32,000 nucleotides of DNA from Candidatus Saccharimonadota bacterium (GTDB lineage Bacteria > Patescibacteriota > Saccharimonadia > Saccharimonadales > Saccharimonadaceae). Made by a program: the position numbers and the translations under genes. The DNA is taken from contig MKSO01000001.1 of assembly GCA_001897305.1 (NCBI GenBank), positions 868,472-900,471 of the forward strand, in the 5' to 3' direction. Positions 2,448 to 18,838 of the stretch are shown here, piece by piece; the first letter of the stretch is position 1, and every line of letters begins with the position of its first letter. The notes under the pieces are model-generated. The model was not told the DNA's origin and did not search any database. It worked only from the letters and a program-made list of their open reading frames with translations.

Positions 2448-2548
2448 TATACTCTGTGTAATGGATGCGTGGTGAAGGCAACCCAATCCCACTACAACCT
2501 AGAGGCTATACAGAATCTAAAAGATATCTCGTCATTTACTAACAAAGG

Positions 2549-2618
2549 GAATCCAGTAGCACTCATACTACTGGATTCTCTAAAATATAATTTTGGCTCA
2601 GCATACGAGTCACGGAAT
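2549..2618 (-). repeat. Junction repeat copy A3 (hairpin + tRNA-3'-end-like 25-mer)
   Basis: 11-bp stem GAATCCAGTAG/CTACTGGATTC (2549-2559 / 2568-2578), a spacer, then TGGCTCAGCATACGAGTCACGGAAT (2594-2618). It aligns with the copies at 4400-4476 and 5577-5646. Confidence 0.7.
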
Positions 2619-2777
2619 AATCACGGCGGGGGTGGGGCACGAGATGAGACAAATGAGACACGAAACACATATACTTGAAATGTCTCGTTTTTACGGATTT
2701 AATAGATTTTTACGAACATAATCCGCACTTAGATTAACTCTTCTTATAGAAAGGTTTGTTTAGATGACTTATGGTGA

Positions 2778-3281
2778 TTAACCCGCTCTGTCTGTTAGTT
2801 CGTCACGATGATCGGGGTTACGTCCGGCGTCAGCTAACATATCACGCCGTTTTTCTGTCTGTATCCAATGAGGCACGTCTACTACTCCCGAGTCCTCGAG
2901 AAGCAGCCCTTCAATAATCTCTTTCGCTTCAACTGCTACTTTCTTGTTTAAGCCTTTTATATTTAGTTCGTGAGCCGTATTTTTGCCAATGATTCGCAAG
3001 CCACCAAAAATTGGTGTGTTTACGTAAACAATCCGCCCTATATCTTTTACAGGCATGGTTTCTACATACGAAAACAAGAAATCATTATGGACAACCGAAA
3101 TGGTCTTTTCCTGAATAACTAACTCGTCAGGGAATATGTCAGTAATCCAATGGGCCTTTACCCTAAACAGTTCGCGGTTACGTTTTTTGGTTGAGGGTAG
3201 ATTGCTAGATTCAACCCTGCCGCTTTGTATCTGCGCGGGATACGGTGTTCTTCGACTGATTTTGTTCTGATCATCTACCAT
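2778..3281 (-). CDS. Hypothetical protein (167 aa)
   Basis: Intact ORF with GAGGG 8 nt upstream of the ATG. Its ATG overlaps the stop of the upstream ClpB-like ORF by 7 nt. No motif recognised. Confidence 0.55.
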   Translation of the reverse strand: MVDDQNKISRRTPYPAQIQSGRVESSNLPSTKKRNRELFRVKAHWITDIFPDELVIQEKTISVVHNDFLFSYVETMPVKDIGRIVYVNTPIFGGLRIIGKNTAHELNIKGLNKKVAVEAKEIIEGLLLEDSGVVDVPHWIQTEKRRDMLADAGRNPDHRDELTDRAG

Positions 3282-3718
3282 AAAGTTACCCTCTGCTTTG
3301 TATCAAAGCTGTATTTGTTATTGTCGTATTTAACAATTACCTCGCTTCCCTGTTTTATCGAACCATCAATGATGTTTTTTGCTAGTGCATTCAATTTGCG
3401 ATTTTGTATGACGCGTTTGAGCGGGCGAGCGCCAAATGCCAGGTCGTAACCTTCTGTTGCTAGCGCTTTTTTTGTGGAGTCGGCAAATTCCAGCCTAATG
3501 TTCTTTGATGCTTCAATGTGGCGAGCGAGGGCCGATAGCTGCACATCGACAATCTGTTGCATATCGTCCTGCTTGATGCGATCGAATATCACGATGTCGT
3601 CGATACGGTTCAAAAACTCAGGGTATAGCGAATATACATCATCATCGAGAGATACAATTGCATTGCCTTCGGCAATTATCGCGAGTCTGTAGTTACCCCA
3701 TTGAATCAATCTAATCAT
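3275..3718 (-). pseudogene. ClpA/ClpB C-terminal (D2 small domain) fragment, 147 aa; a remnant or a stand-alone domain protein
   Basis: 'YPEFLNRIDDIVIFDRI..DDMQQIV' and 'GYD..FGARPLKRVIQ' match the last ~130 aa of ClpB-type AAA+ chaperones. Walker A/B and the whole of NBD1/NBD2 are absent. Confidence 0.6.
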
Positions 3719-3846
3719 CTAACTCCATTATACCACCATCTTTGATCGAGGGGCGGGGCCGCCTATAGATCGGCACTTCAGGAAAATTGCCCCGCCTACG
3801 CTCTCGATATATGGCGAACACCCGTCAGATCTAACCCCTAGAAATG

Positions 3847-4272
3847 CTACTTCTTTTTTGATGCGATAGTAATTTTCTTTGGTTCAGGCAGTGGTGCGAG
3901 CGGAATACTGACCTTCAAAACGCCATCATCCAGGTGCGCTTCGATCTTGTCGGTATCAGCCTGCTTTGGCAGTGCAATTCGTCGATAGAAACTACTTGAG
4001 CTTTCACGCACCACGTACTGCTTACCCTTATCTTCCTCTTTTTCGTGACGTTCGGCACTAATCACGAGTGTACCGTTCTCCACTTCGATATTGACATCTT
4101 TCTGCTCAAAGTTAGGCAGATGCGCCTCAACCACAAGGTTATTATCTTTAGTAAAGACATCAGTCGTCGGAATGTTAACGCCTTTTAGGGGCGACATCCA
4201 GTCATCACCAAAGAATTGTTTTTGTAATGCAGAAAGTTCCGCAAAGGGATCCCACTTTACAAGATTGCTCAT
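3847..4272 (-). CDS. Hsp20/alpha-crystallin family small heat-shock protein
   Basis: 141 aa with alpha-crystallin core 'VVEAHLPNFEQKDVNIEVENGTLVISAER' and 'FYRRIALP...DGVLKVSIP'. AAAGGAG RBS; CIRCE operator upstream. Confidence 0.9.
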   Translation of the reverse strand: MSNLVKWDPFAELSALQKQFFGDDWMSPLKGVNIPTTDVFTKDNNLVVEAHLPNFEQKDVNIEVENGTLVISAERHEKEEDKGKQYVVRESSSSFYRRIALPKQADTDKIEAHLDDGVLKVSIPLAPLPEPKKITIASKKK

Positions 4273-4334
4273 AATTTTCTCCTTTCATCATTGCATTAAT
4301 GGTTTCCTGGAGAAGCATAGAAGCTTCTGAATTT

Positions 4335-4363
4335 AGTATAGAAAATTAGCACTTACATGTCAA
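4335..4363 (-). promoter_or_regulatory. Sigma-70-type promoter of the hsp20 gene
   Basis: The minus strand reads TTGACA (4363-4358), 17 nt, TATACT (4340-4335), about 60 nt upstream of the ATG at 4272. Confidence 0.6.
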
Positions 4364-4372
4364 GAGTGCTAA
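4346..4372 (-). promoter_or_regulatory. CIRCE element (HrcA operator)
   Basis: The plus strand reads TTAGCACTT-ACATGTCAA-GAGTGCTAA against the consensus TTAGCACTC-N9-GAGTGCTAA (1 mismatch). It overlaps the -35 box and spacer of the hsp20 promoter. Confidence 0.85.
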
Positions 4373-4399
4373 TTCAGATGATTTAGTTGTTATCAAAAT

Positions 4400-4476
4400 A
4401 CCCAGTAGCGTGAATGCTTACTGGGTACACTTTAAGATATGCGCTCTTGGCTCAACTTCGCGGTCTTGAACTTAAT
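4400..4476 (-). repeat. Junction repeat copy A1 (terminator-like hairpin + tRNA-3'-end-like 25-mer)
   Basis: Stem ACCCAGTA/TACTGGGT (4400-4407 / 4419-4426) with an 11-nt loop. TGGCTCAACTTCGCGGTCTTGAACT starts at 4448 and abuts the stop codon of the 4477-4995 gene. Confidence 0.75.
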
Positions 4477-4995
4477 TCACAAATTTTCAACGATAGCATC
4501 TGCTGCCTTATAGGGAGATAGGGCGGATGTGTCAATTTTAAGCGACTTTACAAAAGGAATAGAATAGATATCCATATCCTCTGTGATAGTTTTCATAATC
4601 TCTGGGTCTGTAAGCTTTTTATATCTCTTACGTGATTCATTACCAACGCGAGCAATTAAATCATCCCTATTAGCACTTAATTCAACAAAGAATATCTCTC
4701 CTTTATTGTCCTCAACCGTCTTTATGAATTCGCGGACATTATCGTCGTCGTCCGAACCCTCGTATACGTATGTAAATATAAGATCCGTGTCGTTCTTTGA
4801 GCAATAATCTAAAACATCAAATCGTATACGATCTACCAAGGCATAATTTTCTCTCAGTTTATCTTTATAAATATCCTTTACCAGGTCACGAGATAGATGG
4901 TTATGAAACAGGGGGATGCCAGTACGCTCAGCTAATTTCTCGGCTACCGTAAGCTTACCAGAGGCAGGCGGGCCATATATAAATATCAGTTTCAT
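4477..4995 (-). CDS. P-loop NTPase / small-molecule or nucleotide kinase-like protein (AAA_33-like)
   Basis: 172 aa with the N-terminal Walker A-like 'IYGPPASGKLTVAEKLA'. Size and layout are typical of small kinases. Confidence 0.6.
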   Translation of the reverse strand: MKLIFIYGPPASGKLTVAEKLAERTGIPLFHNHLSRDLVKDIYKDKLRENYALVDRIRFDVLDYCSKNDTDLIFTYVYEGSDDDDNVREFIKTVEDNKGEIFFVELSANRDDLIARVGNESRKRYKKLTDPEIMKTITEDMDIYSIPFVKSLKIDTSALSPYKAADAIVENL

Positions 4996-5244
4996 AATGA
5001 TAGCATATCATACATTCCGGTCTTGAACTTTAACTCATAGTTTCAGGGAAAGCACACAGGTCTAGAACCAAATCTAAAGAGGTGTCTATAAAAATCAGCT
5101 AGCTTCTTAAATCAACCGCTCAGCAAAAGACGCTCCCACTTAAATGGCCAGCACTTTTAACAGCGGTAAATTAAAGACCAGTCAGAAAGACTGGTCTCGA
5201 ACTATTCGGGTGTCTAGTTTGGCTCAGCAGGCCGGTCACGGACC
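4996..5244 (-). repeat. 249-bp spacer R1 with four GGTCNNGAAC-type motifs; includes junction repeat B1 (5175-5244)
   Basis: GGTCTTGAAC 5019-5028, GGTCTAGAAC 5059-5068, hairpin AGACCAGTC/GACTGGTCT (5175-5183 / 5189-5197), GGTCTCGAAC 5193-5202, TGGCTCAGCAGGCCGGTCACGGACC 5220-5244. Same length and same motif order as 6382-6630. Confidence 0.7.
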
Positions 5245-5559
5245 TTAAATAGACGCAGTTATATCACGAGAGCTCACGACCCTTTTCTTGACCGATCCAA
5301 CATATAGCCGATAAGCTGGTCTGTCTTCCTTCTTGTAATTAATGAGGTTACCTAAGATCCTGTTGCATACTGTACAAGTTAGTTCACTTCCATTCGGTCT
5401 ACTGTCAATAAAACGGTCTGTATACATCCGCTTTAAGACTCCCGGTCCATCTTTTTGATAAAACGTTATATGAGCATTACAGCCTTCACAGGTAATATCC
5501 AGGACCCGTGAGCGGCCGCCGCGCGACTTTTGATACTTATCAGTCTTAAACTTGTACAT
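5245..5559 (-). CDS. Zn-ribbon protein, function unknown (104 aa)
   Basis: Two CxxC pairs ('CEGC', 'CTVC'). The stop abuts repeat B1, and an extended -10 box lies 6 nt upstream of the ATG. Confidence 0.55.
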   Translation of the reverse strand: MYKFKTDKYQKSRGGRSRVLDITCEGCNAHITFYQKDGPGVLKRMYTDRFIDSRPNGSELTCTVCNRILGNLINYKKEDRPAYRLYVGSVKKRVVSSRDITASI

Positions 5560-5576
5560 ACTCTAACTATAGCAAA

Positions 5577-5646
5577 ATCCAGTAGCGTGAATGCTTACTG
5601 GATAACCTGTAAAATATATGCTCTTGGCTCAGCTTGCCGGTCTTGA
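5577..5646 (-). repeat. Junction repeat copy A2
   Basis: Stem ATCCAGTA/TACTGGAT (5577-5584 / 5596-5603) with the same loop as A1 and one compensatory base-pair change. TGGCTCAGCTTGCCGGTCTTGA (5625-5646) abuts the stop of the EEP gene. Confidence 0.75.
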
Positions 5647-6381
5647 TTATTTAACTTCGAAATCGAGCACCAACCCCTGGTGGTCGGATGCTACAACTTC
5701 TGAGGCATAGAAATCATTCACCGCGACCTTGTCATTCACAAAGATAAAGTCGCAGGGCTCGCTTTTATGCGTCAGGTCGGTACGTGTCGTTTGTAAACCG
5801 TACTCTTTCGTCAGATTACGGAAATCTTTGTTCAGAATCTCTATCGATTCGCTATCCGGGAGAAGATTGAAGTCGCCCGTAATAATCACCGGGCCATCGA
5901 GTTGCCTTGCGTAATCAGCTATCTGTTGACACGCCTTCATGGTGAAATCATTGCCGTTCTTATGACCTGGAACATGATAGCCGTGGTGATTGATAATATG
6001 AATCTGTCGTCCATCTTGGTCCTTAATGGTAACGTGCTGAAAATTCCGTACATTGTAGTCATCATTTTCAAGCGACATGCTTGGATTGTATTCGAGGTTT
6101 GTGAAATAAGTCTGCTTATCCTCAAGCGCAAGATTACTCACAATCGCATTACCAAACTCAGGTTTGCTTGTCATCAGTTGAATTGCGTAGACCGGCGAGT
6201 GGTATCTATGATGAAAACGTAGATTATCCGCAAGTTCAGTTAAAGTGGGGAAGAAACCTAAGTCGGCAACAGACTCAAATACCTCTTGTAACGCGATTAT
6301 GTCCGGAGCCTCTTTCATCACCATATCTTCAATACGAGTCGCAAGGCGAATTGTCCACGCATTCAATTGTAGTAATCTCAT
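5647..6381 (-). CDS. Endonuclease/exonuclease/phosphatase (EEP) family protein
   Basis: 244 aa with 'DIIALQEV', 'GNAIVS', 'ITGDFN' and 'SDHQGL', the EEP catalytic motif set. Confidence 0.8.
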   Translation of the reverse strand: MRLLQLNAWTIRLATRIEDMVMKEAPDIIALQEVFESVADLGFFPTLTELADNLRFHHRYHSPVYAIQLMTSKPEFGNAIVSNLALEDKQTYFTNLEYNPSMSLENDDYNVRNFQHVTIKDQDGRQIHIINHHGYHVPGHKNGNDFTMKACQQIADYARQLDGPVIITGDFNLLPDSESIEILNKDFRNLTKEYGLQTTRTDLTHKSEPCDFIFVNDKVAVNDFYASEVVASDHQGLVLDFEVK

Positions 6382-6630
6382 GTTATGAGTATAGCAGGGT
6401 TGCGGTCTCGAACATTATCGCAAATTTTAGATAGGGGCATACCGGTCTAGAACTATTTTTCCAGAGGTCGCTATGAGTTCCTAACTGCCATCATGTATTT
6501 AGTAGTTTAGATAAAATACCTTGATCTGGGTAGCTGACGCCTTTATCAGAGGTAAAGCAAAGACCAGCCACAAGGACTGGTCTCGCACTATTTGGGTGTC
6601 TAGTCTGGCTCCGCTTACAGGTCACGAACT
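6382..6630 (-). repeat. 249-bp spacer R2, paralogue of R1; includes junction repeat B2 (6561-6630)
   Basis: GGTCTCGAAC 6404-6413, GGTCTAGAAC 6444-6453, hairpin AGACCAG../..CTGGTCT (6561-6583), GGTCTCGCAC 6579-6588, TGGCTCCGCTTACAGGTCACGAACT 6606-6630. Confidence 0.7.
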
Positions 6631-6710
6631 CTTTAACAGGGGTAGAACGCTACAAATCGGACACGGCGTGTATAGAATTAGACTGCGGCAACAATAAGCC
6701 GCAAGGAGGT

Positions 6711-7169
6711 ATGGTTATGAGCGAAAACGAGCATTTAAAGCGCGAATTTACGGATGAAGAGCGCCGTAGGTTAGTCGACTACTTTAACTTACTAATTGAG
6801 ATAGATCAACGAGAAAAAGCACGATATGCCAAACTCAAAGATTTCCCGAAAGGATTTGCTATGGACGGCGAAGGTCGAGAGTGTGGACTATGTTTCAGGC
6901 CTGTATATGATATTGCTGGCTGGTTCGATAAATGGGGCTTTAAATGCTCTAATTGCCAGGATGCAGTGAACAAGCGAAAAATACCAGGATCTTTGTGTAG
7001 CGATTATCGACACGAGAAGTCTATTCCCGATACGATGCTTGCTTCAAAGCTTAATATAAGCGTGCGAACGATTCGCAAGCAGATTCATGAAGGAAAGATA
7101 ATTGGGCGAAGAATTCCGAATGGGCCATACATGATTCTACGGAAGGACAATCCTAATCTTCAGCGTTAA
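6711..7169 (+). CDS. Zn-ribbon + C-terminal excisionase/MerR-type HTH DNA-binding protein
   Basis: AAGGAGG RBS. CxxC-x18-CxxC ('CGLC...CSNC'). C-terminal 'LNISVRTIRKQIHEGKIIGRRIPNGPYMI' resembles excisionase-family HTH_17. Confidence 0.6.
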   Translation: MVMSENEHLKREFTDEERRRLVDYFNLLIEIDQREKARYAKLKDFPKGFAMDGEGRECGLCFRPVYDIAGWFDKWGFKCSNCQDAVNKRKIPGSLCSDYRHEKSIPDTMLASKLNISVRTIRKQIHEGKIIGRRIPNGPYMILRKDNPNLQR

Positions 7170-7869
7170 ATATGCGTTCAAATTCTTCGAGCTCACCTTT
7201 AAGCCATTTTTGATACTTTTCATCAAAAATCAAATCAATTCTTTCTTTTATTTCTGTATTTACCGACGAAGCTCCCTTGTCCACAATTTCTTTTACATTG
7301 GACCAGTCTGGCAGTTTGAAGTTAAATATATCATCGAGAGCTTCATTAATGAGCTGTAGTGTCAAAAAATCGACCTTATAACCACCGTTTTCATATCCAT
7401 AACGTGCAGTGACAAAGATATTATCGGAGGACTTAATAACCTCTGACCATTTACCCGGCTTTAATCCATTGTCCACAAGATGCTTCTCTATATAGTTTCT
7501 GTATCTTGGATCAAGTTTGCTCAAAAGAGCTTTCATCCCATGACCTCTTTCGAGTTTGCCTGTGCTCCCTAGTAGAACTGCTTTTAGGAGCAGCTCGTTT
7601 GACAGAGCTAGCTGCACAACCAGTGCCTGAGGAATAGAATAAACAAATTTCCAATCATCTACTGGAATCGGGTAGCCCCCTGGAACTGATACCTTTTTTG
7701 ATAGCGCTTTTGATTTTTCATATACGTCTCTAAAAGCTACGGCATAAGCATAAATATCATTTGGAGTGATGGTGTTGCTCGTGTGATTAATGTTAAGAAC
7801 ACCATAGGCAGGAAGTTTTTTGAAACGGTATCCCTGTTTGTTGTTTGTGTAGTCTTTTGATTTAGCCAT
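7153..7869 (-). CDS. HEPN-like helical protein (238 aa), last gene of the MTase/helicase operon
   Basis: 'ELLLKAVLLGSTGKLERGHGMKALLSKL' followed by 'FVTARYGYE' resembles the HEPN helix pattern (A..E.aLKA.L....tH.L..L ... RY). Start set at ATG 7869 behind GGAGAGGG; the track start at 7884 is a GTG. Confidence 0.5.
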   Translation of the reverse strand: MAKSKDYTNNKQGYRFKKLPAYGVLNINHTSNTITPNDIYAYAVAFRDVYEKSKALSKKVSVPGGYPIPVDDWKFVYSIPQALVVQLALSNELLLKAVLLGSTGKLERGHGMKALLSKLDPRYRNYIEKHLVDNGLKPGKWSEVIKSSDNIFVTARYGYENGGYKVDFLTLQLINEALDDIFNFKLPDWSNVKEIVDKGASSVNTEIKERIDLIFDEKYQKWLKGELEEFERIFNAED

Positions 7870-7945
7870 TACGACCCTCTCCACCAGTTTCTATTACGCC
7901 ATGACCCTTTGTTGTGTAGTCGGAGTAAGAGTAGCGAATGCCCAT

Positions 7946-10459
7946 TTAAATCACCTCGCTTAAGATAACCTCGTCAATTTCATCGCGCGTAAGAGTAGTG
8001 TCAAAGCCACCGATCTTTTCATCACCAGACAAGCTGCGACCGCCAGCGTAAATCAAGCTTGAATCTTCAAACCTCTTAAACATAAAGATCGCTTGGTTAA
8101 GTTCATTCTGATTGAATACACCGATCTCGCACATACGATCGAAGTCACGCACTGACAAACCGGTAACTTTCGTGAACAATTCGGGCTCTAGGTTTCGAAT
8201 GACATCAATCAAGGTCTCCTCACGATAATCAGTAAGATACATGAAAACTGGGATACGAGTTATAAACTTCAATAACTTCTCGCGCAGCTGGCGCTTGAAC
8301 CCTTTATTCTCTTTTTCTTCAGCATCTTCTTTCTTTTTCTCTTCTTTCGTAGGCTCGTCGCCAGTTTCGGCACGCTCCTTCTTTTTCTCGTTCAAAGACT
8401 TCTCACTATTGATAGTCTTGGTGATATCTTGCCGTAAATTACGGAAATCCTCGATTTTCTCTAACGCCGCGAGAACATCAGGAGCATTCAATACTTTCTC
8501 AAGTACAATCGTCGTGACATCTACGAGCCGTGCCGACTGCCAGCGCTTCGCGAGCATCGTACTGGCCGTACCGTAGGTTGATATATCAAGAATTGCCGTA
8601 GCATCTAGTTTCGTCATCGATACGCCGTCATAACACAGGACAGGCAAGAACTCGATAAACTCCTCAAGTCGCTTTTCGGTAGTCCGGTTATCGCTCACAC
8701 CACCAAGTTCATTGCTGTAATTTGCCATGAGTTTCAAAGCGCGGCTCGGCGCAAAGTCCAATAGATAGCAAGTAGGCTTTATGATCTCTTTTTCGTTTGG
8801 ATTCTCTGCATTCGTGATTGACCAAGGGCTTTGCGCACGAAACGCGGTCTGAAAATAAGTCTCCGGACTGTCCGTATTTCTAAGGAAGAATACGCCGCTC
8901 CAAGGCTTGACCGTAACACCAGTAGTAAGCTTGCCACACGAAAGAGTAATCGTCCTTGTCTTGAATGGATCTCCTATTTTATCCAGCACTGGGTCGAGTG
9001 CCTCTTTGCCAATTCCGGCATCTTTACCGGCCGCATTGATAATTTCATACTCGCCAAAGAACGGATCATTATCGAGAAGCCGCTTCATTGCTTTACAGCT
9101 TGAGACACGCGGCAGGAACCAAAAGGTATGCTTAAGTGTAGATAGAAGCCGAGCGTCCTCAAAGGGTAGTGCTGGTTTTTGGTGGTCCATCTTATTCTCT
9201 ATAGCGACATCAAGGTCCATGCCGCGAAGAATATTCAAAAACTTCTGAACGTCGTTTTCACGCTCAAAAACATATTCACCTTCATCATTTTTCTTAGCAC
9301 TAAAAAACTTATTGAGATCAAACTCATTAAATTCACCCTGTTTGGCGATTTCTCGCAAACTATCTGGCATCTGATATGTCATCATGACAATCTGCGGCAG
9401 TTCAGCATACGGATTATCCTCATCTCTGCCTTGCCAGTTCTTTTTTTCACGCTGCTCGTCTGCGTAAGTCCAGTTGAATATTTGGTCTTCGCTAAACTCA
9501 CCACCAGCCAAGGCTCGGAACGGAGTACCCGATAGGTAAAGATAGGAACCGATCTTAAACGGTAGTATTTCCTCGATTTGGCCTTCTTCTAGGTCTGTGA
9601 GCGGATCTTTTTCATCTTTATCTTCTGAGGTAAGCTCTTTCGCACTATCTCGCCAGGCACCAAAGTGGTATTCATCAATTACTAGGCAGTCCCAATCTTC
9701 CTGACGCATGCGCTTGTGACGTTCTTTCAGGGCACCCGACTCTTTGTCTTTGCCCATGACATCTTGGAAGCTGGCAAACCAAACTACAGGCTTTTCTTCA
9801 TCTATGTTTTCCCAGCCCTGCTTGCCACCAATAAACTGCCATCCCTCAAAATCAACATGACCGTCTAAGTCTTCGCGCCATTGCTTCTCGGTAGCCGGCT
9901 TGTAGGTGAGTACCAATATGCGTTTCCACCCCATTTCTTTTGCAAGCTGGTACGAGGTGAAGGTTTTTCCGAATCGCATTTTCGCATTCCACAAAAAGTG
10001 CGGCGCGCGACCTTCGTGTGTTTTTGGATACTTAGAAAAATAAAGAGATGTCTTCTCTACCGCATTTTTTTGCTCAGGACGCATCGGAAAGGTGCCGAGA
10101 CGATTGCGATCGGTACGTATGCCAGTTTTCATCTCTAGAATTGCAGCCTTTACATCTTCAACGCTACAGTCAAACCACTCCGTAGCAAGTCGGCGAATAC
10201 CGCGGTTTAGGAGTATCTTATGAATCGCATGATCGCGGAAATATGCACCATCATTTGTAATTGCTTCAGTAAAATATTCAAGCTTATACTGTTTGTTCGG
10301 TGTATTGACTAGCCCTTCCTCAATGCGAGCAACCACAGCGTCAACATCCCGGTCGGATTTTGTTCGACGTGACGTGTCGCCGACTTTAACGCCAGGTTGA
10401 TTCGGCACGGAGTATACATAGATTTGAGGCTTTTTTCGGTAATCAAGAAGTTCGGCCAT
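7946..10459 (-). CDS. T5orf172 (GIY-YIG-like) domain fused to an SF2 (Res/DEAD-like) helicase; putative restriction/translocase subunit
   Basis: N-terminus 'IYVYSV..GVKVGDTSRRT...HKIL...TEWF' (T5orf172 pattern). Helicase motifs 'RFGKTFT' (I), 'VIDEYH' (II), 'LSGTPF' (III), 'QTAFRAQS' (VI). K/E-rich linker near the C-terminus. Confidence 0.75.
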   Translation of the reverse strand: MAELLDYRKKPQIYVYSVPNQPGVKVGDTSRRTKSDRDVDAVVARIEEGLVNTPNKQYKLEYFTEAITNDGAYFRDHAIHKILLNRGIRRLATEWFDCSVEDVKAAILEMKTGIRTDRNRLGTFPMRPEQKNAVEKTSLYFSKYPKTHEGRAPHFLWNAKMRFGKTFTSYQLAKEMGWKRILVLTYKPATEKQWREDLDGHVDFEGWQFIGGKQGWENIDEEKPVVWFASFQDVMGKDKESGALKERHKRMRQEDWDCLVIDEYHFGAWRDSAKELTSEDKDEKDPLTDLEEGQIEEILPFKIGSYLYLSGTPFRALAGGEFSEDQIFNWTYADEQREKKNWQGRDEDNPYAELPQIVMMTYQMPDSLREIAKQGEFNEFDLNKFFSAKKNDEGEYVFERENDVQKFLNILRGMDLDVAIENKMDHQKPALPFEDARLLSTLKHTFWFLPRVSSCKAMKRLLDNDPFFGEYEIINAAGKDAGIGKEALDPVLDKIGDPFKTRTITLSCGKLTTGVTVKPWSGVFFLRNTDSPETYFQTAFRAQSPWSITNAENPNEKEIIKPTCYLLDFAPSRALKLMANYSNELGGVSDNRTTEKRLEEFIEFLPVLCYDGVSMTKLDATAILDISTYGTASTMLAKRWQSARLVDVTTIVLEKVLNAPDVLAALEKIEDFRNLRQDITKTINSEKSLNEKKKERAETGDEPTKEEKKKEDAEEKENKGFKRQLREKLLKFITRIPVFMYLTDYREETLIDVIRNLEPELFTKVTGLSVRDFDRMCEIGVFNQNELNQAIFMFKRFEDSSLIYAGGRSLSGDEKIGGFDTTLTRDEIDEVILSEVI

Positions 10460-10460
10460 A

Positions 10461-11984
10461 TTACTTCATCTCCGCAATAACGGACTCAATAAACTTTTGT
10501 TCTGCCTGTGTTATTTCGTAACGTTCATATAACTTTTCGTCTGTCCACGTCTGGTCCATCGGAAGGTTCGGTACAAATCCGTAAACTCTAGCCGTAGCAT
10601 CATGTGTGACTTTTTTGAGAGATATCAAGAACCTTACAAATCTCGTCTGCAGATATTTTTTTAAGTTCTCAGCCTGCTCCTTTGAGTGAAGTTGTCCAGC
10701 ACCTATTACAACATACGTTTCCGTACAGCATGTTCCCGGCTCGCCAATTATAACGTTTAGATTATCATCGGGTGACTCTGTACCAATATTGTTAGCTTTT
10801 GCGGTGAATATTTTCCAGGAATTGATCCATGAAGAGTTAACTTGTACCCGCTCACGCCTAATGTAGCCTGTCTTTTTATTTGCATAAATCTTGACCTTGT
10901 CTGGATTATTTATTTGATCATAATCCGCAAAATTAGTTGCGAGACCGAAAGGCTTGCGAGATGACACTATTTTATCTAACGTCTCCTCGTTCCTATCCTT
11001 AACTTTTTCATAAATTGGTACTGCTTGGTTGTAACGAATAAATACATCGAATTCATTCAGTGGGCGCTTCGTAACAGGAAGCTCCTCTTCTCCAATTAAA
11101 GTATGGACTTCACAGTCACCTGAATATTCAGCTTCCCATACGAAATACATCACTCCGCCTTTTATCTCTACGCCAGGGAAGCAGTCACTCGCGCGCGGAT
11201 AGTCGTACATAACCTTGATCCGCTTATCAGCCAGCATCTCAGCCCTAAACTTATCTAAACCTTTTCCTCCGGAGAACCAGCGCGACGGTATAATAAATGA
11301 CATATATCTCGGCTGAAGTCTTTTTGCCTGCTGAACAAATAGCTGGTAAATAGGCGCGGCACTCGATCCGTGACCGCCATCCTTCAGTTGATACGGCGGG
11401 TTTCCTACGATAACATCAAACTTCATATTGCTCGCCTCCTCTGCTGTTAAATGAATAAATTTATATGCGTGACGTTCTTGGTCTTCACCGCGACCACCGA
11501 GCTGTGCGTCGGTTTCTTTATTGCCACAGTATTTACAATTTCCGTTTACGTATGTGTGTGTGCGGTTTTCGTAATCAATGTTGCCGTTTGGGCTCTGGAA
11601 GTGCGCGACGGATTCTTCGCTACTTGCGTTCTTGCTTGTATATAAGCTTCTTCGAGCCATCAAAGCCGTAAGCTCAGTAATACCAATGCCGTATATCATA
11701 TTTTGGAAGATATGCTGGCGTCGCTCTTCCTCGTCAGGAAATTTATCCTTCAGGCCGATCATTAAACGATAAGTAATTTGGCGTAAAAAGACACCAGTTT
11801 TGGTTGCAGGATCGAGCCACTTTAGGCTTGGATTGCTCCAGACCTCTTCGGGTAGCGCGTCAAGCACCTTATCTACCATATTCGGCGGCGTGAAGACTTC
11901 GTCACTCGATAGATTGGCAATACAGTCAAGAATATCTGGTCGGTGATCAACTTCATTTAGAATACGTGTGACAATATTAGACAT
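10461..11984 (-). CDS. Gamma-class N6-adenine DNA methyltransferase (Eco57I/TaqI-like) with C-terminal target-recognition-like region
   Basis: Motif X 'DEVFTPP', motif I variant 'LDPATKTGVFL', motif IV 'VIVGNPPYQ'. Separated from the downstream helicase gene by 1 nt. Confidence 0.8.
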   Translation of the reverse strand: MSNIVTRILNEVDHRPDILDCIANLSSDEVFTPPNMVDKVLDALPEEVWSNPSLKWLDPATKTGVFLRQITYRLMIGLKDKFPDEEERRQHIFQNMIYGIGITELTALMARRSLYTSKNASSEESVAHFQSPNGNIDYENRTHTYVNGNCKYCGNKETDAQLGGRGEDQERHAYKFIHLTAEEASNMKFDVIVGNPPYQLKDGGHGSSAAPIYQLFVQQAKRLQPRYMSFIIPSRWFSGGKGLDKFRAEMLADKRIKVMYDYPRASDCFPGVEIKGGVMYFVWEAEYSGDCEVHTLIGEEELPVTKRPLNEFDVFIRYNQAVPIYEKVKDRNEETLDKIVSSRKPFGLATNFADYDQINNPDKVKIYANKKTGYIRRERVQVNSSWINSWKIFTAKANNIGTESPDDNLNVIIGEPGTCCTETYVVIGAGQLHSKEQAENLKKYLQTRFVRFLISLKKVTHDATARVYGFVPNLPMDQTWTDEKLYERYEITQAEQKFIESVIAEMK

Positions 11985-12675
11985 TTCCAGACTCCTTATA
12001 AAATAGTGTAGCTTGGCCGCTCATTAAATCGATATTACCAAATGGCTTTGGGTGATATTTTGCTAAATTGATAGGCTCCATCGCTGATAACTTAACCAGT
12101 GGAAATTCTTCCGAAACTGAATCATCACCATTTTCCATGCTTGTTAGTGCATAGACCTTGCGCTTAACGCTGGCTTTTGTAATGTATTCGGCGCCATGAA
12201 AGCCGTATTCAACAAAAAAAACTTTATCTTTACCATTCAACATATCACCGAGCTGAATATTTGTATCGAGGATGTTTTTTACCGCAAGTAAAAACGCTGC
12301 CGATGACTTCTTTGGGGCGAACATAAAGATTTCGTCCATAATGCGTTTTTTGCATTCAGCGATATTATCGTCAGCGATATCGACACCATAAATAGTAGAT
12401 ATCATCTTAACGATTGCGTACTCACGTTTGTCAGCCGGGCGATAGGTAGGTGTTTGCTTGATCCGCATGAGTCGTTGTCGAACAATTTCTACCAAAAAAT
12501 TACCATCCCCACATGCGGGTTCAAGAAACTTCCAAAATATATTGTCGGTTGCTTGGGTGAGAGCCAGAATATTTTTTACTTCACGCTCCCGAGTAAAAAC
12601 TTCGCCCTGATCACGTACACGATTTTTAGATTTGATGATTTTCTCTTTTGATAGCGAAGACATATTACACAACAT
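11977..12675 (-). CDS. Methyltransferase-like SAM-binding protein lacking the catalytic (D/N)PPY motif (232 aa)
   Basis: 'GEVFT' (motif X), 'FLEPACGDGNFL' (canonical motif I), 'IYGVDI', 'IQLGDML'; no NPPY follows. 8-nt overlap (ATGTCTAA) with the next gene. Alternative start ATG 12663, 10 nt after a TATAAT box. Confidence 0.65.
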   Translation of the reverse strand: MLCNMSSLSKEKIIKSKNRVRDQGEVFTREREVKNILALTQATDNIFWKFLEPACGDGNFLVEIVRQRLMRIKQTPTYRPADKREYAIVKMISTIYGVDIADDNIAECKKRIMDEIFMFAPKKSSAAFLLAVKNILDTNIQLGDMLNGKDKVFFVEYGFHGAEYITKASVKRKVYALTSMENGDDSVSEEFPLVKLSAMEPINLAKYHPKPFGNIDLMSGQATLFYKESGNV

Positions 12676-12712
12676 TATACCTTAATTACCTCAAGAAATC
12701 ACTCTCCATAGT

Positions 12713-12752
12713 CGAGAACGTACGAGAATTGTCAAGAATTGACGAGAATTGT
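12713..12752. promoter_or_regulatory. Four phased 10-bp direct repeats (putative operator/iteron) upstream of the MTase operon
   Basis: cgagaacgta|cgagaattgt|caagaattga|cgagaattgt with exact 10-bp periodicity. A fifth CAAGAA core sits at 12692-12697. The array lies 38-77 bp upstream of ATG 12675. Confidence 0.6.
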
Positions 12753-12768
12753 AAATGATTTTTTAATA

Positions 12769-12798
12769 TTGACTGTTCACGTTGCGTAATGCTATCCT
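12769..12798 (+). promoter_or_regulatory. Candidate promoter for the ParB-MTase transcript
   Basis: TTGACT (12769-12774), 18 nt, TGcTATCCT (extended -10, 12790-12798). This would give a ~190-nt leader before ATG 12992. Confidence 0.35.
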
Positions 12799-12991
12799 AA
12801 ATATAGCCACATGGCTAGCACCTTACCGGATCACAAGTCCCAATTCATTCAAGGCTATATACGGCATAGAAAGAGTTGATCGAAAGGAGGCGAACCTTTT
12901 ATCTCAACCGAGGTAAATTGTTTGTGCATCCATTTCTATCAACTAAATCTATGCTCTTTTTATTTGGAGAGCATAAGAAAGGAAGCGTCTT

Positions 12992-14362
12992 ATGACCTCC
13001 TCAACCTCTCAGCTGCACGTGCAGCACATCAACATCAACGAACTGAAAGCCAGCGAGTTCAACCCGCGCACTTGGTCGGATCACCAGCTGGCGAAGCTGC
13101 GTGAAAGCATCAAAAAGTTTGGTGTAGTTGACCCACTCATCGTCAACGCTCACCCATCGCGCAAAAATATTGTGATCGGTGGCAATATGCGGCTCGAGGT
13201 ACTCCGGGAGATCGGTCACACCGAAGTGCCCGTCGTTGAGCTACACCTAACCGAGCGGAAAGAGCGTGAACTCAACCTACGTCTTAATAAAACCGGAGGC
13301 GACTGGGATTACGCTCTACTAAAAGAGTTCGACGAAGATCTACTAGCCGACGTCGGCTTTGAATCCGAAGAGCTCGATGACGTTTTCGCTATCGAGGATA
13401 CCGAAGAAAAGGCTTCATTCGACCTGAAAAAGGAGCTGAAGAAGCTTGATATCAAGAAAATCACCGTTCAAAAAGGCGATGTTTACCAACTAGGCGAATC
13501 ACGGTTAATGTGCGGTGATTCCACCGTCGAAGCTGATTTCGACAAACTGATGGACGGCGAAAAAGCTGATATGTGCATGACCGACGAGCCGTATATCCTG
13601 GACTACCTGCACGCCAAGCGCGGCGGTAAACCTGTCAAAGGCTTTGGTGCTAAGCGTGACCGCATTTACCTCGAAACTGAAACGTTACCAGATAACTTCA
13701 TCGAGCTCTGGATGGCTAATGTCGCCAAACATGCCAAGCCGGACTTCAGCATCATCTCGTATGAGAACTGGAAGAACCTGCGTGAAATGTGGAACGCGAT
13801 GGAGAAGTACTGGAAAGTTAAAAACATGATCGTCTGGCACTTGCCGAACCGCCACCAAGGTTTTTCATCGAAATACAAATTCTTCTCGAAGCACGATATT
13901 GCCGTTGTGGGTGGCTCTGGCGACGTACCATATAACACCGATGACGAAGAGGGCCCGCTACAGGAAATGTACGAAACCGCTCTGTTCGCCATCTCCGGTA
14001 AGCCACAGTGGGAGGGTTACGAAAAAGGCAAGAAATACATGCCGACCGACTTCATCGAGTTCAATGCCGATGACCTGAAAGGCTCCGGCCAGGGCGTCGT
14101 GTTCGGCACGAAGCCACTTGATATCCTTATTCCCTACATCAAGGTCCTGACGCGGCGTGGTGACCTCGTAGTGGAACCGTTCGGCGGGTCAGGGAGTACG
14201 CTCATCGCATCGATCAAGCTTAATCGCCGCTGCTACATCATGGAAAAAGTGCCAACCTACGCCGAAGTGATCTTGCGGCGCTGGGAAAAAGAAACTGGCT
14301 TGAAGCGCAAGCTGATTGTACGAGGTAGCGATGACGAAGTTCAGTCGAGCGTACAGGAATAA
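12992..14362 (+). CDS. ParB-like nuclease domain fused to a beta-class N4/N6 DNA methyltransferase
   Basis: N-terminus 'FNPRTW', 'VIGGNMRLEVL' (ParB/Srx fold). Motif IV position reads 'CMTDEPY'. C-terminal motif I 'VVEPFGGSGST'. AAAGGAAG RBS. Confidence 0.8.
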   Translation: MTSSTSQLHVQHININELKASEFNPRTWSDHQLAKLRESIKKFGVVDPLIVNAHPSRKNIVIGGNMRLEVLREIGHTEVPVVELHLTERKERELNLRLNKTGGDWDYALLKEFDEDLLADVGFESEELDDVFAIEDTEEKASFDLKKELKKLDIKKITVQKGDVYQLGESRLMCGDSTVEADFDKLMDGEKADMCMTDEPYILDYLHAKRGGKPVKGFGAKRDRIYLETETLPDNFIELWMANVAKHAKPDFSIISYENWKNLREMWNAMEKYWKVKNMIVWHLPNRHQGFSSKYKFFSKHDIAVVGGSGDVPYNTDDEEGPLQEMYETALFAISGKPQWEGYEKGKKYMPTDFIEFNADDLKGSGQGVVFGTKPLDILIPYIKVLTRRGDLVVEPFGGSGSTLIASIKLNRRCYIMEKVPTYAEVILRRWEKETGLKRKLIVRGSDDEVQSSVQE

Positions 14363-14942
14363 GATCCTCGGTCTCCTCCGGGAGAATCCAAACCTTCAGC
14401 GTGCCTGCAAAAAAGCAGGCATCGCTCGAAGTACGCTCTATCGCTGGATGGAAGACGATATCGAGTTTCGTGATGACATCCGCGATGCTCAAGAAATCGG
14501 CCAAGATACCATGAATGATTACGTCGAGGCTAAGCTTATGGAAAACATCCAAAACAACACGCAGCGCTCGATTGAGTTCTACCTGCGCCATAACAGCCCG
14601 AAGTACGCCTCTACTCGTGTCGAAACCGAGTACTTCGATAAACGTGGTGCTGGGCGAATTACCCACTTGCCTGTTGGCATCGACCCGATGTATTACAGCG
14701 GCGAAATCGACATACTGGACAAGCTCGCCGAACGAATGGAACTTCGTCGTGCTATGAATGAGGTAAAGCTGAAGACCGAAGGTTACGACCCTAACAGGCC
14801 AATTCGCCCCGAAAAACTAGGTAAGATGTTCGCCGAAGAGTTCTATCAGGCGTTTCCTCACGCCAAGGATATAATCGACGATCAACTATACGAATACGAT
14901 AAGAAAAAGCAGCAAGAAGATTGCGAGCAGGATGATCGCTAG
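14331..14942 (+). CDS. Phage terminase-small-subunit-like HTH protein
   Basis: 'ACKKAGIARSTLYRWMEDDIEFRDDI' followed by 'IEFYLRHNSPKY' matches the phage TerS / phBC6A51-type homeodomain pattern. ATG 14331 is preferred over the track TTG at 14316. Confidence 0.55.
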   Translation: MTKFSRAYRNKILGLLRENPNLQRACKKAGIARSTLYRWMEDDIEFRDDIRDAQEIGQDTMNDYVEAKLMENIQNNTQRSIEFYLRHNSPKYASTRVETEYFDKRGAGRITHLPVGIDPMYYSGEIDILDKLAERMELRRAMNEVKLKTEGYDPNRPIRPEKLGKMFAEEFYQAFPHAKDIIDDQLYEYDKKKQQEDCEQDDR

Positions 14943-14993
14943 ACTTATACCCCGCTTGGCGGTATGTTGTGTTGCTGAAGAAAGGAATTACAG

Positions 14994-15299
14994 ATGAAAA
15001 TGACAGATGATGCGATGAAGATGCGAAATGGAACCAGTTTCCGGAGCTATATCAATGCCCAGTATGACAAACTGGTTGAACTATTCGGTGAGCCGTTTAC
15101 CGATACCAATAATCATAAGACGGATGCTGAATGGATCGTCGCTACTCCATACGGCCCAGCCACGATCTACAATTACAAGAATGGCTTCTCATATTTAGGA
15201 CTTAGCGGATTAAAGCTCGAAGAGATGAATGAGTGGCACGTTGGTGGCAGAAATAAGCAAAGCTACGAGTGGATCGTAGAAAAAATCACTACTGGTTGA
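14994..15299 (+). CDS. Hypothetical small protein (101 aa), phage-like
   Basis: AAAGGAA RBS-like sequence and an intact ORF. 'TIYNYK' and 'WHVGG' resemble motifs I recall from phage hypothetical proteins, but no family can be assigned. Confidence 0.5.
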   Translation: MKMTDDAMKMRNGTSFRSYINAQYDKLVELFGEPFTDTNNHKTDAEWIVATPYGPATIYNYKNGFSYLGLSGLKLEEMNEWHVGGRNKQSYEWIVEKITTG

Positions 15300-16209
15300 T
15301 ATCGTAACTCTGTTGGATGAGATTCATCACATAATCTAAATCAGTAGCGGACGTGACTTCAACTTCATAGTCACCATTGCCCCAATGGCCTATGTGCACA
15401 GGTGACTCAACGTCACGAGCAAGTCCCCGCGGGTCATCTAGCGTGCCGGTCTTCATGTTGATATAAAGTTTTAGCTTAGACTTCTTGAAGACGACATCAA
15501 CAAAGTTTCGTGTCGTTTTGTAGGCTACGTACATCTTCTTTGGATCCTCGATAATTTCCGTATCGATAGCCAAGATCCGCTCTTTCAGTGATGCAAATAG
15601 CGCTTTGGTCTCTTCATTTGCCATTGCTAAGTGATACTCAAGTGTGAACGTTTCCTGCAGCTTCTCTGGCTTGCCAGAGTCAGTGGTGAACTTCGGTACG
15701 TCTTGCAGCTTCACCTTTTGATAGTTTTCAGTATCCAGTGTTAGCAAACCATCTTCATATAGCTTGTACCGATACAGTTCGATGTTAATAGGCAATAAGT
15801 CGGCGGTGTCTGTGTCGAACTTGTTATAACTCTCGGCAACGCAAATCACTCGCGGAGCGGCCCATTGAATAGCTATCGTAATATTCTTTTCATTGCAAAG
15901 CTTCTCAAAACTATCTTTATGATCAAGCAGCCAACGAAGATATGACAGGCCCTGGTTGATTACGTTCTCGTTATGCCCCTTTTTGTATTCGATAATGCAC
16001 GGATTACCTTCGTCATCGATACCAAGCGTATCCATACGCCCACCAAAACTCGTTGAATATTCGCTCGCTAAAAAGTGAACGCCAAGCAGTTCATGAAGAC
16101 TAGCTTCGAAGATACGCTGAACATCGCGTTCAAGGATTCGTTTGCCGTTTAAGTTTGTGATTGGCTTCAGTCGAGAGGCGTTATTGTTAGATACTTTAAA
16201 TAAACTCAT
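15289..16209 (-). CDS. NucS/DUF91-like PD-(D/E)XK nuclease-fold protein with DUF5655-like C-terminal domain
   Basis: 'GGRMDTLGIDDEGNPCIIEYKKG' gives D...E-x-K. The C-terminal 'YVAYKTTRNFVDVVF...KLYI...GHWGNGDYEV' resembles DUF5655. Confidence 0.6.
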   Translation of the reverse strand: MSLFKVSNNNASRLKPITNLNGKRILERDVQRIFEASLHELLGVHFLASEYSTSFGGRMDTLGIDDEGNPCIIEYKKGHNENVINQGLSYLRWLLDHKDSFEKLCNEKNITIAIQWAAPRVICVAESYNKFDTDTADLLPINIELYRYKLYEDGLLTLDTENYQKVKLQDVPKFTTDSGKPEKLQETFTLEYHLAMANEETKALFASLKERILAIDTEIIEDPKKMYVAYKTTRNFVDVVFKKSKLKLYINMKTGTLDDPRGLARDVESPVHIGHWGNGDYEVEVTSATDLDYVMNLIQQSYDINQ

Positions 16210-16260
16210 AATTTCATATATTATCTCACTTTTCGCTAGACTTTACTACTGTTAGGCGGT

Positions 16261-17565: not shown

Positions 17566-17572
17566 CAGACGA

Positions 17573-18526: not shown

Positions 18527-18631
18527 ATAAAATATCTTATCACTGGTCAAGGAACTCGGTCAGTATTTCGGCTGTCCAGTCGCCCTAGGAGAAACCAGTC
18601 AATTTCAGGACTAAACATCAAGGGTGAACAC

Positions 18632-18655
18632 GAAAAAACCGCCCTTTCGGACGGT
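18632..18655 (-). terminator. Rho-independent terminator downstream of tRNA-Asn
   Basis: The minus strand reads ACCGTCC-GAAA-GGGCGGT (7-bp stem with one G-U, GAAA loop) followed by TTTTTT. Confidence 0.6.
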
Positions 18656-18763
18656 TCTATCGGTTTCTGTACCTTTTGATAACAATTGGTACTCTTGTCT
18701 GACTCAAGGGGTAAATCTGACTTTTGGTCAGGGAACCCGGTCTGGGTATTTACCTGCTGAGTC

Positions 18764-18838
18764 TGGCTCCGGCGGCTGGATTCGAACCAGCGACCTCGAA
18801 GTTAACAGCTTCTTGCGCTACCGCTGCGCCACGCCGGA
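18764..18838 (-). tRNA. tRNA-Asn (anticodon GTT), CCA encoded
   Basis: Reverse complement: TCCGGCG-TG-GCGC-AGCGGTA-GCGC-A-AGAAG-CTGTTAA-CTTCG-AGGTC-GCTGG-TTCGAAT-CCAGC-CGCCGGA-G-CCA. Full cloverleaf with 7-bp acceptor stem, canonical T-loop and anticodon GTT. Confidence 0.92.

Follow-up and report, generated by a model that had tools for sequence, protein, structure and literature searches.

In staphylococci, the composite islands of the staphylococcal cassette chromosome mec (SCCmec) are inserted at the 3′ end of rlmH (orfX) by the large serine recombinases CcrAB and CcrC. The cis-mobilizable elements (CIMEs) are deletion derivatives of integrative and conjugative elements (ICEs), several kb in length and dependent on a tyrosine integrase; they belong to the accretion–mobilization model of streptococcal ICEs, such as ICESt1 and ICESt3 at fda. 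What defines the tycheposons of Prochlorococcus is an integrase of their own, a deep-branching tyrosine recombinase, often together with replication hallmark genes; a tyrosine recombinase is present in 910 of 937, while large serine recombinases are used by a minority (bioRxiv 10.1101/2020.12.28.424599). The present work concerns a 32,000-nucleotide stretch of DNA (hereafter the window) from a Candidatus Saccharimonadota bacterium (contig MKSO01000001.1, positions 868,472 to 900,471), in which five copies of a short repeat separate a series of genes lying downstream of a tRNA-Asn gene. We propose that these repeats are probably the junctions of a site-specific insertion array which, in this Saccharibacteria genome of ~1 Mb, is seated on the tRNA-Asn 3′ end.

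The locus resembles each of several known systems in part. With SCCmec it has in common a large serine recombinase associated with a short core at the 3′ terminus of a conserved gene, tandem units between direct repeats of that core, some of which lack a recombinase and could be moved in trans, and adaptive or defence-related cargo. It differs from SCCmec in that the target is the tip of a tRNA gene, with the core GAGCCA, rather than a protein-coding gene, in that a unit may measure only ~0.4 kb and contain a single gene, and in that these small units carry a terminator and −10 module; furthermore, the host is an ultrasmall epibiont, and the system is known here from sequence alone. Like integrons and clusters of attC sites lacking integron integrases (CALINs), it holds mostly single-gene and mostly co-oriented cassettes without a recombinase, carrying diverse cargo; the same cassette occurs with different neighbours, and there is one platform per genome. 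However, the core is GAGCCA and not GTTRRRY, the platform is a tRNA gene, many cassettes have their own promoter and terminator rather than relying on Pc, and no IntI was found in a screen that was weak (see below). We also considered and rejected an attC reading of the repeats: there is no GTTRRRY core and no imperfect palindrome of the R″/L″–L′/R′ type, and the far side of the hairpin, which lies ~20 nt from the crossover point, is complementary to neither the arm nor the core.

The tycheposons likewise integrate at tRNA genes of a streamlined genome, are flanked by partial tRNA repeats, and are pushed deeper into their island by successive integrations, whereas the small units described here have no integrase or replication genes, consist of single cargo genes only, and cross over at the very 3′ tip of the tRNA. 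The CIMEs of the accretion–mobilization model are likewise att-bounded elements that lack a recombination module and stand in tandem beside an autonomous element that could mobilize them, but the units of the present array are compact single genes with a dedicated expression module. As in other tRNA-targeted islands, the array starts at the intact 3′ end of tRNA-Asn, has direct repeats of GAGCCA with an arm (at 6606, 5625, 5220, 4448, and 2594), and shows presence/absence polymorphism with breakpoints at the att repeat. The domain set, catalytic serine motif, and att linkage of the recombinase, together with the joined ends in a related contig, are those of large serine recombinase elements; the 2-bp crossover of attP × attB catalysis would lie within the 6-bp GAGCCA to which the exchange has been narrowed.

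All five repeat copies lie at gene boundaries in one orientation, and each is made up of a hairpin, about 20 nt of spacer, and TGGCTC followed by a 19-nt arm. In + strand coordinates, the hairpin, TGGCTC, and arm are located at 2546–2581, 2594–2599, and 2600–2618 in copy A3; at 4400–4426, 4448–4453, and 4454–4472 in A1; at 5175–5197, 5220–5225, and 5226–5244 in B1; at 5577–5603, 5625–5630, and 5631–5649 in A2; and at 6561–6583, 6606–6611, and 6612–6630 in B2. A1 and A2 are 84% identical over 73 nt, and B1 and B2 82% over 88 nt, with A3 being a weaker match. From 2500 to 6400, the genes of the window are encoded by the minus strand, and in the sense of these genes a junction consists of a stop codon, the 19-nt arm, GAGCCA, a trailer of ~20 nt, and the hairpin with its T-run. 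The invariant GAGCCA corresponds to the A72-G73-CCA end of tRNA-Asn, and arm length across units is roughly 19–25 nt. In the rest of the window (the other ~25 kb), the repeat is found only at the tRNA-Asn 3′ end.

Shuffle controls place these copies well above chance. The pattern TGGCTC-N8-GGTCNNGAAC with up to three mismatches has seven matches in the window compared to 1.69 expected, a number reached in 0 of 100 shuffles; besides the five copies, it matches the tRNA-Asn 3′ end and, with three mismatches, 5272–5295. Exact GGTCNNGAAC also occurs seven times, always on the + strand and within 4462–6629, with 0.81 matches expected. The five same-orientation copies listed in an earlier reading of this DNA (the original prediction) all exist. 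Its 25-mers were quoted correctly, although the ends that it gave for A1 (4476) and A2 (5646) are off by 3–4 nt. Stop codons do abut the 25-mers as it described, with a gap to the arm of 4 nt for the P-loop gene and 0 nt for the Zn-ribbon gene, and with the stop of the endonuclease/exonuclease/phosphatase (EEP) gene inside the arm; the 13-bp repeat CGGTCTTGAACTT does flank the P-loop gene, at 4461–4473 and 5018–5030; and the spacers upstream of the P-loop and EEP genes are indeed both 249 bp. Its suggestion that the 25-mers resemble the 3′ end of tRNA-Asn holds for B1 and B2, which match at 17 and 16 of 25 positions, respectively; a score of at least 16 is attained by only 4 of the ~64,000 25-mers in the window (excluding the tRNA itself), these two included. 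It is weaker for the A-type arms (14 matches for A2, 13 for A1, 12 for A3), which outside GAGCCA agree with tRNA-Asn at 6–8 of 19 positions and are not above background by themselves, so that the resemblance of A1, A2, and A3 is mostly due to the common GAGCCA. No 5′ acceptor or T-stem partner is present upstream of the arms in the window, and an Rfam search of positions 2500–6700 at E-values up to 10 returned neither a partial tRNA nor any other family, the arms being too short or too diverged for that test.

The strongest evidence for recombination comes from related Saccharibacteria contigs and genomes (designated by L-numbers), in which cassettes vary in presence and are reshuffled at GAGCCA. 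The window segment 4402–5635, a block containing the Zn-ribbon and P-loop genes, has a 97.8% identical counterpart within a different array on L004, a contig of 306 kb that comes from a related lineage. L004 has no EEP cassette (window 5636–6605), the junction there being the B2 arm, GAGCCA, and the A2 trailer, and it has an extra cassette for a 97-aa protein, with its own trailer and arm, inserted at the A1 GAGCCA. L198 and the window have both outer flanks in common (85% identity for the island arm, and 98.1% over 1616 bp for the A3 trailer and the MPG gene) with two different cassettes between them. The A3 trailer and its flank recur at 97.8–99.65% identity behind three different sequences: a complete tRNA-Asn (L135), a partial tRNA arm (L150), and the arm of a zinc-dependent alcohol dehydrogenase (Zn-ADH) cassette (L198). 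For the first two, homology begins at GAGCCA; for L198, it begins 8 nt upstream of the hexamer. Copies of the 1054-bp Zn-ADH cassette in the species-level genomes L137, L151, and L152 are 98–99% identical, and its arm is identical in the metagenome contigs L196, L197, and L198; in these six contexts it is accompanied by at least three different left arms and at least five different right trailers. Similarly, a 425-bp cassette stands behind tRNA-Asn itself in L173 and behind a type I arm (defined below) in L178.

Taken together, ~47 loci provide 185 internal ends of homology blocks, of which 65 are no more than 10 nt away from GAGCCA, compared to 3.7 expected; relative to the core, homology starts cluster at −2..0 and homology ends at 0..+5. 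This accumulation of breakpoints at the hexamer argues that the crossover occurs inside GAGCCA, which in turn means that the arm goes with the upstream unit, and the trailer and hairpin with the downstream unit. Each unit opens right after the previous GAGCCA with a trailer of ~20 nt, the hairpin, and the T-run, and recombination inside the hexamer carries the arm along with the upstream gene and the trailer and hairpin along with the downstream gene. Excision of the EEP cassette is predicted to give a circular joint of the form ...TAATCAAGACCGGCAAGCT-GAGCCA-GACTAGACACCCAAATAG... and a matching empty site ...GTTCGTGACCTGTAAGCG-GAGCCA-AGAGCATATATTTTACAGG.... With the crossover confined to the 6 bp of GAGCCA, the 19-nt arm need not be a tRNA remnant. 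The earlier view of the repeats as att-like tRNA fragments needs correcting to this extent: true 25-nt fragments of tRNA-Asn serve as arms in L157, L160, and L181, but many arms in other genomes are not tRNA-like. Its broader proposal of serial-integration scars that build a hotspot between the core genes and tRNA-Asn agrees with the comparative data, which include presence/absence differences exactly at the 25-mer boundaries (L004 and L198 versus the window, and the Zn-ADH cassette in its six contexts). That the repeats are recombination junctions of mobile units is a conclusion that we hold with high confidence.

Scanning 185,579 species-representative genomes with the A-type pattern yielded 53 loci, of which ~38 are in Saccharibacteria and the remainder look like chance, and all DNA relatives are Saccharibacteria metagenome-assembled genomes (MAGs). 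A scan of viral contigs for GAGCCA, a CCAGY hairpin, and TTT gave 120 single chance matches. There is one locus per Saccharibacteria genome (~38 assemblies, including a complete 1.04-Mb genome and contigs of 0.4–1.0 Mb), and no further copy elsewhere in the window, which rules out the genome-wide terminator or repetitive extragenic palindromic (REP)-like family that the repeat might otherwise have represented. For 13 of 41 Saccharibacteria loci, the fetched DNA includes a complete tRNA-Asn on the same strand, and an A-type trailer follows the tRNA directly in L135, L141, L170, and L173. In L162, six further cores lie between tRNA-Asn and clpB; L131 packs six cores into 3.7 kb, and L151 and L175 are similar. 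The cassettes of at most 3 kb (n = 30) have a median length of 728 bp, the smallest units being ~0.4 kb, and 19 of them contain a single open reading frame (ORF); 26 of the ORFs are in the sense of the tRNA and 10 are opposite. Their cargo includes an LD-carboxypeptidase, a DHH phosphoesterase, RsgA, a histidine phosphatase, a DUF84 NTPase, the Zn-ADH, and a DedA/VTT protein, and no recombinase was seen among the small-cassette cargo examined. The arms fall into type I (GTyCGTGACCTGTAAGCG), which includes those of the window, and types II, III, and IV in other genomes, which are not tRNA-like.

The Zn-ADH cassette also bears on where cargo may come from. Outside Saccharibacteria, the named relatives of its protein (L151 897–1847) are all from Actinobacteria, namely Nocardia, Nonomuraea, Streptomyces, and Micromonospora, at 53–56% identity. 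Actinobacteria are known hosts of Saccharibacteria, and these relatives hint at the hosts as a possible source of cargo. Distant ADH homologues in L199 and L202 are not located in GAGCCA-bounded arrays.

Only one recombinase was found in physical linkage with the site, a large serine recombinase that adjoins it in six independent contexts. Its gene (16261–17565, + strand) encodes Resolvase, Recombinase, and Zn_ribbon_recom domains (PF00239, PF07508, and PF13408); the translation has an intact N-terminal YARKSS...Q catalytic motif and matches PHROG 95, an integrase family, at 4.5e-66. Its own family comprises more than 120 clusters at 71–92% identity. In the window, L183, L185/186, and L187, the gene is found 0.65–7 kb from the tRNA-Asn 3′ end on the opposite strand, and L158 starts with a similar tRNA-Asn junction beside a partial recombinase homologue. 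The sequence after tRNA-Asn in the window, L176, L183, L185, and L187 is the P′ end of the recombinase island, with GAGCCA followed by GACCAAGCAG...GTTCCTAGACC. At their distal end, these islands have a type I arm beside a divergent zinc-ribbon/HTH_17 gene. In L188, an IMG/VR contig, the two island ends are joined, in the order recombinase, cargo, P′, GAGCCA, type I arm, and HTH gene, and the gene order is that of the window island; the joint could be either the predicted attP, which for the window island would read ...GTTCGTGACCTGTAAGCG-GAGCCA-GACTCAGCAGGTAAATACCC..., or a tandem junction. Junctions between an arm and P′ are also seen in L157 and L178. A comparison of attB-type and attP-type arms with respect to half-sites and a 5-bp shift placed the island arm in the same register as the tRNA. 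It is probable, given this linkage, that the serine recombinase is the integrase of its own island.

Two further observations touch on the recombinase and its site. A relative with 47% identity (L192 10001–12342) lies ~1 kb from the 3′ end of a tRNA-Ser gene, again on the opposite strand, and the clade may generally target tRNA 3′ ends. In addition, a near-palindromic motif, GTTCNNGACC in gene sense, occurs as direct repeats at 5019–5068, 5193–5202, 6404–6453, and 18720–18735, that is, in an arm, beside a B-type hairpin, twice in each of the 249-bp leaders of the P-loop and EEP genes, and in P′. It is found ~30–40 nt into the P′ of recombinase islands, among them the P′ arms of L157, L176, L183, L187, and L188; the recombinase, the HTH_17 protein, and a regulator are all candidates for binding it.

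More tentative is the proposal that the same enzyme moves the recombinase-less small cassettes in trans, to which we assign a probability narrowly below even. The arms of small cassettes are nearly identical to the island arm, as illustrated by AGTCCGTGACCTGTAAGCG in L162 and AGTTCGTGACCTGTAAGCG in the window. Several points weigh against the proposal. Canonical large serine recombinases join attP only to attB and do not recombine hybrid sites, and the internal junctions are hybrids of an arm and a trailer; a more permissive enzyme would therefore be needed, of the kind reported for CcrAB or TnpX. Arm types II–IV are unrelated to the island arm, with which they share only GAGCCA, and it is not obvious that one enzyme could recognize all arm types; nor was any convincing inverted-repeat symmetry of half-sites found around GAGCCA. 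Many arrays, among them L131, L151, L162, and L175, show no recombinase in the 4–8 kb fetched. Finally, in the window's own species, neither an excision product nor an empty site was seen, and the same array is present in more than 20 contigs from different metagenomes, which means that any activity is slow or rare. It is because of the hybrid sites, the unrelated arm types, and the invariance of the array within its species that we rate mobilization in trans no higher. Identical window proteins occur on contigs of 0.9–1.05 Mb in many metagenomes, and scanning metagenomes for the ADH arm recovered only three loci and no circular-junction evidence.

Some of these points would be accommodated if the cassette junctions were instead produced by a tyrosine recombinase encoded elsewhere, of the integron-integrase or Xer type, acting on an overlap of GAGCCA(AG), with the serine recombinase moving its own island only. 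An invariant core of 6–8 bp with variable flanks is typical of the overlap regions of such enzymes, for which arrays of near-identical simple sites would be natural, and both the many arrays without a serine recombinase in the fetched DNA and the unrelated arm types II–IV fit this alternative. However, a cognate tyrosine recombinase, as anticipated in the original prediction, was not found: Pfam detects no tyrosine recombinase or Phage_integrase domain among the ORFs of the 32-kb window, and a phmmer search of the fetched array loci (~0.45 Mb) was also negative, albeit as a weak screen with a single E. coli XerD query. The physical linkage of the serine recombinase to the site, and the match between small-cassette arms and the island arm, likewise speak against it, and we regard this alternative as unlikely.

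Even less probable, in our judgement, is an array formed without any cassette recombinase, through natural transformation and homologous or microhomology-mediated recombination between trailers or arms, following rare large integrations that decayed to single genes. The trailers are 80–95% identical over ~60 nt and could provide portable homology; long near-identical flanks do occur in otherwise different genomes (99.65% downstream of the core in L135, where the tRNA is 79% identical), pointing to exchange driven by recombination; and the array is stable within the species. But the breakpoints are limited to the hexamer (−2..0 and 0..+5) and are not spread over the 60-nt trailers. A trailer is always kept with the gene downstream of it and an arm with the gene upstream, the arms and trailers that are joined have only GAGCCA in common, and the cassettes are too compact and intact for products of decay, their arms abutting stop codons and their −10 boxes lying 6 nt from start codons. 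A terminator/promoter module or a tRNA-like 3′ untranslated region that is processed or stabilizes the mRNA, without any DNA recombination, would explain the hairpin and T-run downstream of each gene, the covarying stem, the −10 box after the hairpin, and the register of the 25-mer with the T-loop, acceptor strand, and CCA, but as a sole explanation is contradicted by the single locus per genome in place of a genome-wide family, the indels and reshuffling exactly at GAGCCA, the missing 5′ acceptor and T-stem partner together with the silence of Rfam, and the arms of types II–IV that are not tRNA-like, which leaves it highly improbable.

Within the insertion array, the hairpin may nevertheless have a regulatory function, and the earlier alternative of a mobile terminator/promoter cassette is to this extent partly right. 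The 47 distinct A-type copies, drawn from many genomes, hardly vary in the inner stem CCAGTA/TACTGG or the loop AAGCATTCACGCT, and six outer hairpin pairs covary, with 44 double-change cells compared to 17 in shuffles and 0 of 500 shuffles as high, in accordance with the stem covariation noted previously. After the T-run, the start codon of at least 12 cassettes is preceded, at a distance of exactly 6 nt, by a −10 box of the form TGnTAnnnT or TATAAT. In the window, these elements read TGCTATAGT-TAGAGT-ATG for the Zn-ribbon gene (5574–5557) and TGCTATACT-CATAAC-ATG for the EEP gene (6396–6379). The module appears to act as a terminator plus promoter, and the 6-nt distance from the −10 box to the start codon predicts leaderless transcripts. 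The trailer hairpin would stop transcription arriving from upstream, and a cassette with both a hairpin and a −10 box would be an insulated, self-expressed, and probably leaderless gene.

The chaperone unit is organized differently, the A1 trailer being followed by a controlling inverted repeat of chaperone expression (CIRCE) operator and a TTGACA-17-TATACT promoter for hsp20. This CIRCE, the HrcA operator, is the inverted repeat TTAGCACT-N9-AGTGCTAA at 4346–4372, and is overlapped by the near-consensus promoter (4363–4335, minus strand) upstream of hsp20; related genomes have the same CIRCE in front of clpB. Three other promoter assignments were considered. The conserved loop sequence TTCACG is not needed as a −35 box of clpB/hsp20, for which the TTGACA-17-TATACT inside the CIRCE region is better, but it possibly serves as such for cassettes with an ATG ~20 nt after the hairpin. 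A sigma-54 promoter reading of TGGCTC was discarded on inspection by eye, because the GG/GC spacing is wrong and the promoter would point away from the genes. Type II arms as promoters of reverse genes (TTGGCT-17-TTATAA) were likewise discarded, as most of them follow co-oriented genes.

From tRNA-Asn to the chromosomal flank, the window contains in order the tRNA, a 12.2-kb island, the EEP, Zn-ribbon, and P-loop cassettes, a unit with hsp20 and a clpB fragment, and the flank beginning with MPG. The head of the array is tRNA-Asn (GTT) at 18764..18838 on the minus strand, identified by ARAGORN and by the Rfam tRNA model at 65 bits. Its 3′ GAGCCA at 18764–18769 is the first recombination core and is directly followed by the P′ end of the recombinase island, a junction also present in L176, L183, L185, and L187. 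Upstream of the tRNA are a gene for a 142-aa protein with a LexA DNA-binding domain only (19231–19659, minus strand) and then a Wzy-like gene, a synteny that is kept in L142, L152, L162, L177, and L183.

The island (6612..18763, minus strand), inserted at the tRNA core and annotated with Pfam, PHROGs, and PADLOC, encodes a 325-aa ORF, the large serine recombinase, a DUF5655/PDC-S18 protein, a small terminase subunit, a ParB-methylase, a split type IIG restriction–modification system, a HEPN protein, and the zinc-ribbon/HTH_17 protein (152 aa; 6711–7169, + strand) beside the distal arm. The type IIG system (7946–12675) consists of three ORFs, specifying a T5orf172 plus ResIII protein (837 aa), an Eco57I-type methylase (507 aa), and an N-terminal methylase piece (232 aa). 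The candidate-defence gene for DUF5655/PDC-S18 (15289–16209) directly adjoins the recombinase gene and is 96% identical in L183 (9029–9949), even though the recombinases there are only 74% identical. The island ends at junction B2 (6606..6630, minus strand), composed of its distal arm at 6612–6630 (AGTTCGTGACCTGTAAGCG in gene sense) and the core at 6606–6611; the B2 arm is next to a homologue of the HTH gene in L004, L139, L157, L188, and L198 as well.

The EEP cassette (5631..6605, minus strand) comprises the B2 trailer, the hairpin at 6561–6583, a leader, the gene for the EEP nuclease/phosphatase (5647–6381, minus strand; Pfam Exo_endo_phos), and the arm at 5631–5649, and closes with the core at 5625–5630. 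Its leader has GTTCNNGACC at 6444–6453 and 6404–6413, and TGCTATACT at 6388–6396, 6 nt before the ATG. In the Zn-ribbon cassette (5226..5624, minus strand), the A2 trailer and the hairpin at 5577–5603 precede the gene for a 104-aa protein (5245–5559, minus strand; TGCTATAGT at 5566–5574, 6 nt before the ATG), the arm at 5226–5244, and the core at 5220–5225; L158 has a 66% identical homologue of this gene, also between two cores. The P-loop cassette (4454..5219, minus strand) starts with the B1 trailer and the hairpin at 5175–5197, and continues with a leader containing GTTCNNGACC motifs at 5059–5068 and 5019–5028, the gene for a 172-aa P-loop kinase-like protein (4477–4995, minus strand), the arm at 4454–4472, and the core at 4448–4453.

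The chaperone unit (2600..4447, minus strand) extends from the A1 trailer and the hairpin at 4400–4426, through CIRCE and the minus-strand genes for hsp20 (3847–4272), a C-terminal fragment of clpB (3275–3718), and a 167-aa protein (2778–3281), to the arm at 2600–2618 and the core at 2594–2599. In L004 and L164 the unit closes with the same arm and GAGCCA followed by different flanks, and in L175 the matching arm comes after the 167-aa and hsp20 genes. In the window (2778–3718 region), all that is left of clpB is a 147-aa C-terminal fragment (ClpB_D2-small), with the 167-aa ORF after it and hsp20 upstream; a full clpB (713–730 aa) follows the same trailer and CIRCE in L004, L142, L143, L162, L164, and L175. 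Junction A3 (2546..2599, minus strand) adds the core at 2594–2599, a trailer, and the hairpin at 2546–2581, after which the chromosomal flank starts with the MPG glycosylase gene (1866–2492, minus strand). A 220-aa ORF on the + strand (2016–2678) runs antisense through MPG and across A3; it is probably spurious, but is called instead of MPG in some metagenome annotations (L005 and L008). In L135, positions 5372–6507 are 99.65% identical to window 2599–1464 downstream of GAGCCA (MPG and DUF488 genes); this MAG is labelled Nanoperiomorbaceae, its tRNA-Asn is only 79% identical to that of the window, and its upstream DNA is unrelated, which points to either a very recent transfer of the flank or a mis-binned contig.

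Taken as a whole, the locus may be an independently evolved integron analogue, in which tRNA-Asn is the platform and the serine recombinase inserts and excises single-gene cassettes equipped with their own terminator and leaderless promoter. We put this forward as a working model, with a likelihood that we place below one half. The adjacent zinc-ribbon/HTH_17 protein would then possibly be a directionality factor, and some of the cargo may derive from actinobacterial hosts. Our literature search found no description of such an array in Saccharibacteria or Patescibacteria, and as a gene-capture platform it seems to be undescribed.

How Saccharibacteria and other Patescibacteria, with host-dependent lifestyles and genomes of ~1 Mb, gain and exchange accessory genes is poorly understood. 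The locus looks like a dedicated and widespread exchange platform, with a defined site, a 6-bp crossover, and a candidate enzyme in ~38 species-level genomes. The arrangement of hairpin, −10 box, 6 nt, and ATG additionally suggests a hypothesis on transcription and leaderless translation in this phylum. If the recombinase does move the cassettes, the array would constitute a second, mechanistically distinct answer to the integron problem, would account in part for the differences in defence and metabolic genes among strains and species of these epibionts, and would give those engineering genetically intractable organisms a natural, compact landing site together with an enzyme.

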